Origin: Candidatus Fervidifonticultor sextus
GTDB lineage: Bacteria; Sysuimicrobiota; Sysuimicrobiia; Sysuimicrobiales; Humicultoraceae
Assembly (NCBI GenBank): GCA_031459875.1
Contig: JAVKHQ010000001.1
Location: 214,035-278,034 of the forward strand
Direction: 5' to 3'
DNA length: 64,000 nucleotides
The notes below the pieces were generated by a model that saw nothing but the letters and a program-made list of their open reading frames with translations, made no database searches and was not told the DNA's origin. Within the stretch, counting starts at the first letter, position 1. Every line of letters begins with the position of its first letter. Below are positions 38,805 to 44,895 of the stretch, in pieces. Both the position numbers and the translations under genes were made by a program.

Positions 38805-39680
38805 TCAAGACCGGCCCCGTTGAAGAACAGCCTGCGTCTGCCGCGTGAGACGCATGCCCAGATCGTGCAGGTCGCGGAAGCCTTCCGGCGACGGGAGGTT
38901 AATCTCGCTGGCCAAAAGCCGCAGATTCGGGCCTCCGGCCCAGACTCGGAGAGATCCGCCCTGGTTGGCATGCCACCGTTTGATCACAGCGATGACCTCA
39001 TCTGACACAATCTCCAGTGCCACACGGGCATCGTCGGCGAACACGCGGTAGCCTTCCGGAAGCCTTCCGACGGCTGTGGTCACCTCTCGTGCGGTCCGGG
39101 CAAAGGCGATGACAGGCGGAAGCCGAACCGCGGTCCTCTGTCCGGCTGCGACGGGCCAGGACCCGGGAGTGACGCCTGCTGTGGGATCAACATCAAGTCG
39201 GTACCCGGACCCGGCCAGCCAGCCCCACGCCGACTCGCTCGTCTTGATATCGTTGCCGACGATCGCGAGCACATGTTCCGAGCGCACCGAGTCGGTCGTC
39301 CAAATCAACGTCGTGCGGCGGGGTGTCTCGGCGTCGTCCACACTGACGACACGAAGCGTCCACTCGACGCCGTCCGTGGCGCCCGCGTACCGGGCGACCT
39401 CGCCCTCTCGGAACGGCTCTGTGACCCGTCCGCCCATGGCAAGGGCCCGTGCCGCGTGTATGGTATGCTCCTTCCCCCGGGTCGCGCCTCTCCATCGCGC
39501 CAGCATGATCACGGCGATGACGACGACAATGAGAATTTCTACCAGCCCGAGCGACACGCCAGAACGGCCACGGCGACCCTCATTCTGGATGCCGGCCCGT
39601 ACTACCGCCCGGTCACGACGGTGATCGACGAACCCGGGCTTCCGGCACCAGGAGGAGTAATCGGGGACGGTGTCTGCCAC
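38805..39680 (-). CDS. Membrane protein of unknown function (first gene of the accessory island as transcribed; start uncertain)
   Basis: A hydrophobic segment LGLVEILIVVVIAVIMLARW is followed by a soluble domain. The first roughly 35 aa of the track ORF are the out-of-frame reading of the conserved 3' end of the upstream lectin gene, so they are not part of the protein. Confidence 0.45.
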   Translation of the reverse strand: MADTVPDYSSWCRKPGFVDHRRDRAVVRAGIQNEGRRGRSGVSLGLVEILIVVVIAVIMLARWRGATRGKEHTIHAARALAMGGRVTEPFREGEVARYAGATDGVEWTLRVVSVDDAETPRRTTLIWTTDSVRSEHVLAIVGNDIKTSESAWGWLAGSGYRLDVDPTAGVTPGSWPVAAGQRTAVRLPPVIAFARTAREVTTAVGRLPEGYRVFADDARVALEIVSDEVIAVIKRWHANQGGSLRVWAGGPNLRLLASEINLPSPEGFRDLHDLGMRLTRQTQAVLQRGRS

Positions 39681-40828
39681 GGTCCAACGGCCCAGTTCGT
39701 GGCGATGGCACCGTCGGACCCTTGGTAGAAGACGTGCAACTGGTCACGGCGCAACACGGCTGCAAGACGGGATCCGGCCCCGGCCGCACCCGCCGGCGTG
39801 ATAGCGAAAGGCTTCGCCCACGGCCCGACGGCCCATGTCGTTGCGATCGCGCCGTCGCGAGCGATGTAGAACACGTGGAGTTGGTCGCCGCCACGGACCA
39901 CGGCCGCCAGCGGCGAGTCCCCACGGGCTGCGCCGGGCGGGGTGATAGGGAACGGACTTGCCCAGGAGTGCTGACCATCCTTCCAGGTCGTCGCGACCGC
40001 GCTGTCGGGGCGCACGAAGAACACGTGAAGCTGGTCGTTCCCACGGGTCAGCACCGCAATCGGCGTCTGCGGGTTTCCCACACCGGGCGGAACAATCGGC
40101 TGCCGCCCTGTCGTCTTCTGGAGGGGGTTGACAGGGCGGCAGCTCAGGATGTCGATAGACCAGTCCTCAACGAGTGCGCCGTCGACGGCCTGGTAGAACA
40201 CGCTCCACCCGCAGGGGTTCGGGATGAAGGCCAAGCCGGAACCGTTCCCCACCGAGCTGGCCGAAACGACTTCCAAAGCATACACATGAGAGGCCGTGGC
40301 GGTCACGGGCTGCTCATCCATACCTGCGACTGAGTTGCGCGGGGTGACGAAGAATATCCAGCCGCGGCGGCCCCACTTGGCAGCCGTCAGCGGTGAGTCG
40401 CCGCGCACGAGGCCAACCTGTGTAATGGCGTTCGCTCTCCACTGGCGACCGACCTGCATCGCGCTCCCAATCGCGCCGTCGGGCTGGACGTAGAAGGCTT
40501 GCAAGAAGCCCTGTTCGTTGACCGCCGCGGCGATTGGCGAGTTTGGCCTCCCCGCGCCGGGCGGGGCAATCTGGGACGGCGTGCTCCATGGCCCCACGGC
40601 CCAGTTCATGCCCAGGGCACCGTTGGGGGCCTGATAGAAGACGTCGAGTTCGTCAGGGTTCCTGGTCAGGGTGCGCTCGATACGACCTCCCGGGAGGCCA
40701 GGCGCGGCCGCCGCAGCAATGACCGTCGCATCCGTGCTCTTCTTCGCCATCCCCGCCGGAGAGAGCAGTATCGAGGTCACGACAAGAGCGACTACCCCGA
40801 TCTTCATGGCGCCGGCTTGGAGGAGCAT
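39602..40828 (-). CDS. Secreted beta-propeller repeat protein, PLL/AAL-lectin-like (paralog 1)
   Basis: Signal peptide MLLQAGAMKIGVVALVVTSILLSPAGMA (ATG 40826-40828, SD AAAGGAGAG). Then about eight 47-aa repeats of the form [SP.AAV.R..DQLHVFY.G.DGAIATNWAVGPW..P..ITPPGAA]. The last blade is truncated (..PPGAGSPGSSITVVTGR), consistent with velcro closure. Confidence 0.6.
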   Translation of the reverse strand: MLLQAGAMKIGVVALVVTSILLSPAGMAKKSTDATVIAAAAAPGLPGGRIERTLTRNPDELDVFYQAPNGALGMNWAVGPWSTPSQIAPPGAGRPNSPIAAAVNEQGFLQAFYVQPDGAIGSAMQVGRQWRANAITQVGLVRGDSPLTAAKWGRRGWIFFVTPRNSVAGMDEQPVTATASHVYALEVVSASSVGNGSGLAFIPNPCGWSVFYQAVDGALVEDWSIDILSCRPVNPLQKTTGRQPIVPPGVGNPQTPIAVLTRGNDQLHVFFVRPDSAVATTWKDGQHSWASPFPITPPGAARGDSPLAAVVRGGDQLHVFYIARDGAIATTWAVGPWAKPFAITPAGAAGAGSRLAAVLRRDQLHVFYQGSDGAIATNWAVGPWQTPSPITPPGAGSPGSSITVVTGR

Positions 40829-40842
40829 CGGCGACTCTCCTT

Positions 40843-44384: not shown

Positions 44385-44499
44385 GGCGACTGTCTGGCCT
44401 TCGTGTGAGGTGCGCCGCGAGGGGTCGATCAAGGGCGAAGGCAAACGAGCGCTCCTGGGCGATCGCCGCGACTGGCTGGACCAGGGGGCCGAAGGCATT

Positions 44500-44895
44500 C
44501 TAACGCCCAAGGAATAGCGCGGCAGGCCCGCTAATGCTCGTGCTGGGGCCCCCGATCGTGCGGATCGGCGCGACGTTCCCGTTCGCGCCGGGGGCGAAGA
44601 CCGTCACGGTGTTGGTAGCAAGGTTGGTCACATAGATGTTCCCGGCCGTGTCCTGTTCGACGTCCCGGGGGGTGCTGAGACCCGTATTCGCGCCGCCGAT
44701 CGTCCGAACCGGGGGTGCGTTCCCGCTCGCCATCGCGTCGTACACGGTTATCGTACTGGGGAGGGAATTGGCAACGTAAAGCATGGTGGCGCTTGGAACC
44801 TGGAGCGTCACCAAACCACACGCCGAGGCCAGAAGTGCGCTTACGGCCAGCAGGGTTACCCTGCGCATCTTGCCCATGGGCTCACCACCCCCCAT
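44500..44895 (-). CDS. Small YVTN-family beta-propeller-repeat protein, probable lipoprotein/secreted
   Basis: Two repeats: LYVANSLPSTITVYDAMASGNAPPVRTIGG and IYVTNLATNTVTVFAPGANGNVAPIRTIGG (YVTN/NHL-type). The N-terminus MGGGEPMGKMRRVTLLAVSALLASACGL is signal/lipobox-like. The track ORF's first 90 aa overlap the regulator gene, so the start is uncertain among M92, M98 and M101. Confidence 0.5.
   Translation of the reverse strand: MGGGEPMGKMRRVTLLAVSALLASACGLVTLQVPSATMLYVANSLPSTITVYDAMASGNAPPVRTIGGANTGLSTPRDVEQDTAGNIYVTNLATNTVTVFAPGANGNVAPIRTIGGPSTSISGPAALFLGR

Follow-up and report, generated by a model that had tools for sequence, protein, structure and literature searches.

In the genome of Candidatus Fervidifonticultor sextus, three neighbouring genes end in the same peptide, and their open reading frames (ORFs) appear to run into one another by the same length each time, which raises the question of how old these genes are, what keeps their ends alike and whether the overlaps are real. 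The stretch of DNA analysed here, called the window, comprises 64,000 nucleotides (nt) of contig JAVKHQ010000001.1 with a G+C content of 70%, and comes from a metagenome-assembled genome with locus tags QN168_012xx and the NCBI label Armatimonadota. Its closest named relative is Candidatus Fervidifonticultor quartus, of the phylum Ca. Sysuimicrobiota, which was previously called CSP1-3 (PMC11604079). The original prediction for this locus was a recent tandem triplication with nearly identical gene ends. Our analysis indicates, with good confidence, an old, conserved, operon-like cassette of uncultured Ca. Sysuimicrobiota that comprises three secreted seven-bladed propellers of the PLL/BP39L type, a membrane protein and a STAND/LuxR regulator, in which the likeness of the 3' ends is due to selection and the overlaps are frame artefacts.

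Four genes of the cassette follow one another in head-to-tail orientation on the minus strand. Gene C (QN168_01220, 44384-42099) encodes 761 amino acids (aa), in which a signal peptide precedes an M6-like zinc metalloprotease domain and a seven-bladed propeller occupies aa 425-761 (43112-42102); its translation matches the NCBI protein exactly. Gene B (QN168_01215, 42102-40843; 419 aa in our reading) joins the signal peptide MKTGVRLLAVTSMLFWALVAAQG to a seven-bladed propeller, and gene A (QN168_01210, 40828-39602; 408 aa, equal to the NCBI protein) likewise consists of a signal peptide and a seven-bladed propeller. They are followed by a single-pass membrane protein of 250 aa (QN168_01205, 39557-38805) with a GTG start and an N-terminal membrane helix. 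The spacings C-B, B-A and A-membrane protein are -4, 14 and 44 nt.

The propeller proteins end in ITPPGAGSPGSSITVVTGR (A), ITPPGAGSSGSPIVAVTGK (B) and ITPPGAGSPGSPIVAVTGR (C), which have ITPPGAGS.GS.I..VTGR/K in common. By alignment, these 3' ends correspond to blade 7 and the final strand, at 39602-39745 in A, 40843-41007 in B, where blade 7 carries a 21-nt insertion, and 42099-42242 in C (all minus strand). That the three genes share one C-terminal peptide, as had been proposed, is correct; the underlying DNA, said to be almost identical, is not, with pairwise identities over the last 144 nt of 74.3% (A-B), 79.9% (A-C) and 82.6% (B-C) and longest identical runs of 14-19 nt. Codon position 3 holds 68-76% of the differences, and over the last 100 alignment columns the paralogues differ at a proportion of 0.45-0.57 of synonymous sites (pS) compared to 0.08-0.18 of nonsynonymous sites (pN). 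The combination of high pS with low pN indicates that the likeness is kept at the protein level and is not a relic of recent copying. Because blade 7 and the final β-strand are encoded here, purifying selection on the protein would hold these parts in place while synonymous sites have largely diverged. Nor is the last blade truncated, as had been thought: it is a full last repeat of 45 aa, compared to 47-50 aa in the others, from which only the linker to a next blade is missing.

A recent tandem triplication, of which the 3' ends would be leftovers and in which blade repeats would still be causing expansion, contraction and phase-like changes in the number of blades, could explain the single C-terminal peptide, the many 141-150-nt repeats in the locus and the fact that gene number varies by species, with A missing from the relative L001 (Ca. 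Fervidifonticultor quartus) and a ricin-B lectin gene in the B slot of the relative L006. Recent copies would be nearly identical in DNA, with low synonymous divergence, and would cluster by genome. The paralogous propellers are only 53-59% identical in protein sequence, compared to 70-88% for orthologues in other assemblies, and their synonymous divergence per site (dS, Nei-Gojobori) of 0.79-1.16 equals or exceeds that between orthologues. In a neighbour-joining tree, the genes form clades across genomes, with bootstrap support of 100% for C, 94% for A and 98% for B; the window's own B sits on a long unplaced branch. The order C, B-type, A-type, membrane protein is repeated in L003, L004 and L002+L015. 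Divergence, orthologous clades and repeated gene order together show that the triplication is old, contradicting the recent origin first assigned to it, which, given also the modest identity of the 3' DNA, we regard as highly improbable. Blades correspond by position, with A5/6/7 being 74/77/89% identical to C5/6/7 and A2 73% identical to B2, from which it follows that whole propellers were duplicated; this duplication would have given rise to A, B and C before the sampled lineages split.

The internal direct repeats of about 141 nt are indeed present: the locus contains 21 of them, 141-150 nt long and ~60-80% identical, which are the 21 blades, seven per gene. The predicted variation in blade number across relatives is not seen, since all 15 propellers compared (A, B, C and 12 from relatives) have seven blades. 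The locus has just seven exact repeats of at least 20 nt, of which the longest measures 37 nt (40462-40498, identical to 41763-41799), a picture unlike that of a phase-variable or contingency locus with long identical repeats whose number varies among relatives, and neither repeat lengths nor blade counts in this species-level comparison of the 15 propellers gave any indication of phase-like switching. Within C, the blades form a three-blade super-repeat (42102-43100), in which blades 1/4/7 are 70-79%, blades 2/5 74% and blades 3/6 71% identical, in agreement with a spacing of 432 nt that the repeat finder detected.

The second question concerns the overlaps. When ORFs are called mechanically, B starts at GTG 42177, A at GTG 40921 and the membrane protein at GTG 39680, each overlapping the preceding gene by 79 nt, exactly as originally described. 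These starts are out-of-frame GTGs within the P-W-Q-T codons of the gene upstream (CCG-TGG-CAG-AC, conserved in all three genes): at 42175-42177 in C, giving the MADALPDHAARRG extension of B; at 40919-40921 in B, giving the MADALAHHAAGSG extension of A; and at 39678-39680 in A, giving the MADTVPDYSSWCRKPG extension of the membrane protein (all minus strand). The last 26 codons contain no insertion or deletion in any copy. The equal overlaps thus arise because the three genes share this GTG, have no indel between it and the stop codon, and leave the second frame open at 70% G+C.

The open frames, together with a GTG available at one and the same place in each gene, might still be taken to mean that the extensions (MADAL.., MADTV..) are truly translated. 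Genuinely overlapping genes would conserve the extension in their orthologues; across relatives, the mechanical overlap is 0, 4, 79, 110, 364 or 967 nt, so that the N-terminal extension is not conserved, and in L001 and L002 the GTGA is the earliest start that B could use. G+C content by codon position peaks at position 3 of the upstream gene's frame in the tails of both C (0.88) and B (0.85). It is at the shorter starts that the signal peptides and the membrane helix begin, and these starts are conserved. B starts at ATG 42102, overlapping the stop codon of C by 4 nt (cgATGA), which suggests translational coupling of C and B. The arrangement of a B-type ATG or GTG start on the stop codon of C (ATGA/GTGA) is seen in the window, L001, L002 and L004; a homologous start with the MKTGV signal peptide of B was found in L001, L002, L004 and L005. 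The ATG of A at 40828 is preceded by a conserved AAGGAG, part of the Shine-Dalgarno sequence AAGGAGAG (40835-40842, minus strand), which lies 6 nt before the ATG and directly adjoins the stop codon of B, and the context GTGAA(A/G)GGAGG followed by 6-7 nt and a start codon is also found in L003, L004 and L005. The membrane protein starts at GTG 39557, and in each of its 13 homologues the membrane helix begins at a GTG or TTG. NCBI likewise places the starts of C, A and the membrane protein here, with models of 761, 408 and 250 aa. Translation of the extensions is therefore highly improbable, and the earlier proposals that they are frame artefacts and that the true starts are the downstream signal-peptide starts are borne out for B and A, with the membrane protein starting at its membrane-helix GTG instead. 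The NCBI model of B is the exception: at 321 aa, beginning with MFQAFY, it drops the signal peptide and blade 1, and judging from the orthologues (P0086, P0087) and the ATGA start, which indicate 419 aa, it is probably too short by ~98 residues.

As the source is a metagenome bin, the arrangement itself could be an assembly artefact, in which repeats were collapsed or joined into chimeras. An independent assembly, the Logan contigs of run SRR27730047, matches window positions 50274-41770 and 40491-37537 with 100% identity, which supports the junction of C with B, that of A with the membrane protein, and the gene order as a whole. This k=31 assembly does break inside the locus, yet only at the 37-nt A/B repeat, with contigs ending exactly inside both of its copies, as a k=31 assembler would. 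Given one two-copy direct repeat, the order in the window is the only path that uses all segments. The frameshifted B and absent A of L001 may speak for assembly trouble in such loci, but the same three-gene order was assembled independently in L003, L004 and L002+L015, and we give an artefact very little credence. The copies of the 37-nt repeat also illustrate how public assemblies of such loci are broken up by short exact repeats.

What, then, has been conserved? Scanned against Pfam, neither the three propeller proteins nor the membrane protein gave a usable match. The NCBIfam model NF052348 (beta_propeller_lectin, cutoff 200 bits) is passed by C (251.1 bits, E=1.5e-74), and the propeller of C also finds the lectin BP39L (PDB 6gxr) in a phmmer search (E=4e-29). 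An AlphaFold2 model of A, with a mean predicted local distance difference test (pLDDT) of 78 and a predicted template modelling score (pTM) of 0.79, has the same BP39L structure as its best PDB match in Foldseek (template modelling (TM) score 0.81, root-mean-square deviation 2.8 Å, 27% identity), followed by PLL/PHL lectins. Seven blades of four antiparallel strands are indicated alike by the repeats, by the strand pattern of the AlphaFold2 model and by the seven-bladed top fold matches.

Each repeat follows a plan of inner strand (SPIAAV), LHVFY, DGAxATxW and W..P..IT, and the mature proteins start within it at ..PDELxVFY, the second strand, and end with ..SPIVAVTGR, the first strand. In the AlphaFold2 model of A, the first strand (residues 61-66) is the second strand of a blade and a lone strand (403-406) stands at the end. 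We infer that the C-terminal strand would complete blade 1, which starts without its inner strand, and so close the ring. The pair of Trp residues that aligns with AW...W.GP of BP39L, counted by eye in the blade sequences, is present in all seven blades of C, in four of seven in A and in one of seven in B; B orthologues keep it in four of seven blades, the window's B (40846-41964, minus strand) having lost it in six.

Although the paralogues are old, they have not evolved in complete isolation from each other. A tract around blade 2 of A (40378-40595, minus strand), which holds the 37-nt repeat, is 83-89% identical in nucleotides to its partner tract in B (41676-41896, minus strand), with a pS of 0.28. 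When runs of matching variable sites were assessed by permutation, the P values, uncorrected for the 18 tests performed, were 0.0005 for A-B (blade 2), 0.0025 for A-C (blade 6) and 0.01 for B-C, and cross-genome paralogue pairs used as controls were mostly non-significant. The motifs WAKPFAITP and QGSDG.IATNW are common to A and C in the window genome only. Short, old gene-conversion tracts between the paralogues thus do exist and add patchy similarity. The last 30 codons of B are of the C type (86% identical to C tails) and in this differ from the tails of its orthologues, a hint that an old exchange ended at the stop codon. The last codons and stop of B (40843-40850, GGC AAG TGA A) equal those at the C-to-B junction of L001 (12033-12044, GGC AAG TGA AGACC).

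Gene content, too, differs between species. L001 has one B-type gene alone, with a 1-nt frameshift: a 1-nt deletion in the region 12195-12215 splits the B orthologue (TTCTCCAGGGG instead of TTCTACCAGGGG), and the split gene could be a pseudogene or a sequencing error. Checked as a possible B/A fusion from unequal crossing-over, the single downstream gene of L001 is B-type over its full length, yet its tail and downstream spacer resemble both the tail of the window's A and the B tail of L003. In L006, a ricin-B lectin gene of 193 aa (2141-2722) stands between the protease-propeller and A-type genes, the type of lectin having been swapped in this slot. Exchange and gene gain or loss therefore occur on evolutionary time scales, and the notion of a recombination hotspot finds limited support in short conversion-like tracts and differing gene content; this does not extend to phase-like variation, and exact repeats of 20 nt or more are few.

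Several points weigh against our overall reading. At the 3' end, a tree of the last 100 columns places the tails of A and B among those of C (42% bootstrap), and conversion may have had some role there. A and B score below the 200-bit cutoff of NF052348, at 124.4 and 124.1 bits (B E=6e-36; both ~1e-36), and going by these profile scores, they are homologous yet divergent members of the β-propeller lectin family. B has lost most of its Trp pairs, and its ratio of nonsynonymous to synonymous divergence (dN/dS) is 0.41-0.44, compared to 0.11-0.17 for C and the B orthologue pair; it may be a decaying gene that no longer functions, or one that is neofunctionalising or evolving under relaxed constraint. 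The ring closure proposed above is deduced from strand order, not from model coordinates, and the term operon-like reflects spacing and conserved order only.

The first of these points bears on a further explanation, concerted evolution, according to which ongoing gene conversion, and not selection on the protein, keeps the 3' ends alike within each genome. Besides the tail grouping, it is favoured by the within-genome matching runs, which are longer than those of cross-genome paralogue pairs, by the two motifs confined to A and C of the window genome, and by the C-type tail of B. The strongest tract, however, lies in blade 2 rather than at the 3' end, the 3' ends have diverged as much at synonymous sites as orthologues have, the tail grouping has low bootstrap support and the P values are uncorrected. 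Overall, we consider concerted evolution unlikely, and selection on blade 7 and the final strand the better account of the shared ends.

The remaining parts of the cassette are consistent with its long-term conservation. The regulator, with AAA/TPR (STAND-like) and LuxR/GerE helix-turn-helix domains (44993-47647, minus strand, 884 aa), lies upstream of C and accompanies the cassette in every relative whose flanking sequence is long enough. Its place differs: in L001, as in the window, it lies upstream of C, but in L003 (7798-10176), L004 (8101-10506) and L015 (1520-4009) it comes downstream of the membrane protein. Between the regulator and C sits a small lipoprotein-like ORF (QN168_01225, 44500-44877, minus strand, 125 aa) with weak matches to NHL/YVTN β-propeller repeats, which the syntenic gap of L001 lacks. 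A scan for promoters and terminators inside the locus yielded nothing exceeding shuffled expectation.

The membrane protein has 13 homologues in a set of 5.8 billion proteins, starting at the homologous position, and a fold search with its model gave no PDB match with E < 0.2; to judge from these homologues, it is clade-restricted. In every relative, it comes after the propeller genes, and its homologues in L026 and L028 likewise come after a propeller gene, which in L026 is NHL-like. An exact scan of Joint Genome Institute (JGI) metagenomes for the B-to-A junction produced no match, and a profile scan of metagenome contigs found three loci, two of them distant (32-36% identity) and one a short, 58%-identical fragment (L032, 1,751 nt). 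Scanning genomes returned only the known relatives and distant matches in Actinomycetota, Chloroflexia and others.

Functionally, the propellers would bind glycans, going by their homology to lectins, and in C the propeller would target the M6-like protease domain to glycosylated substrates. The cassette could conceivably be an undescribed glycan-targeted proteolytic or cell-surface system, in which a regulator, a protease-lectin fusion, two lectin paralogues and an orphan membrane protein act together, with sugar specificity diversified by mosaic gene conversion and the membrane protein anchoring or sensing the propellers; this is a tentative idea, to which we assign a low probability. More generally, the locus shows that in high-G+C genomes homologous gene ends can yield identical-looking overlaps in six-frame ORF tracks, and that likeness between proteins may pass for recent duplication as long as synonymous sites and orthologues are left unexamined. 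It extends PLL/BP39L-type propeller lectins, coupled here to a protease, into an uncultured hot-spring phylum, and brings to light a public gene model, that of B, that is apparently too short (321 vs 419 aa).

How does the cassette compare with known systems? The protease domain of C (aa 55-324) matches the M6-family profile TIGR03296 over positions 2-286 of 286 (79.6 bits, E=3.7e-22) and contains the zinc-binding HExxH motif as HELSH (aa 204-208, 43761-43775), conserved in the orthologues of L001 and L002. With HELSH inside this 270-aa match, C resembles M6-family (InhA-like) proteins with C-terminal β-propeller or lectin modules, and homologues named 'M6 family metalloprotease-like' carry varied C-terminal propellers (Tectonin, Tachylectin, FG-GAP, DUF346 and PLL-type). 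C scores below the curated cutoff of 110.8 bits and has no match to Pfam Peptidase_M6, and its catalytic activity is putative.

For the propellers, the nearest counterpart is BP39L of Burkholderia pseudomallei (6gxr) together with NF052348, with which they share seven four-stranded blades of ~47-50 residues and the blade motif ..(Q/D)xxVFxxxxDGAxxxxWxxxxxxWxxPxxI(T/S)PxG.. with its two Trp residues; they differ in carrying Sec-type signal peptides, in the protease fusion of one copy, and in the divergent blades 2-4 and fewer Trp pairs (four and one of seven blades) of A and B. The Photorhabdus PLL family (PLL, PLL2-5, PHL) has the same seven-bladed fold (Foldseek TM 0.73-0.79). In PLL-family lectins, sugar sites lie between blades, where Trp residues stack through CH-π contacts (PMC6943638). 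Several homologous lectins occur per genome, as here, with five in P. laumondii (PMC12203525). Sequence identity to them is 16-19%, and the PLLs lack both a recognised signal peptide (PMC12203525) and a fused protease. The fungal fucose lectins AAL, AFL/FleA and AOL are further removed, sharing the blade architecture, with weak profile matches (E ~2e-3) and TM scores of ~0.6, but having six blades instead of seven and far lower similarity. Set beside these proteins, the locus holds a paralogous gene family that is old and ordinary, and that extends known families without introducing a new principle.

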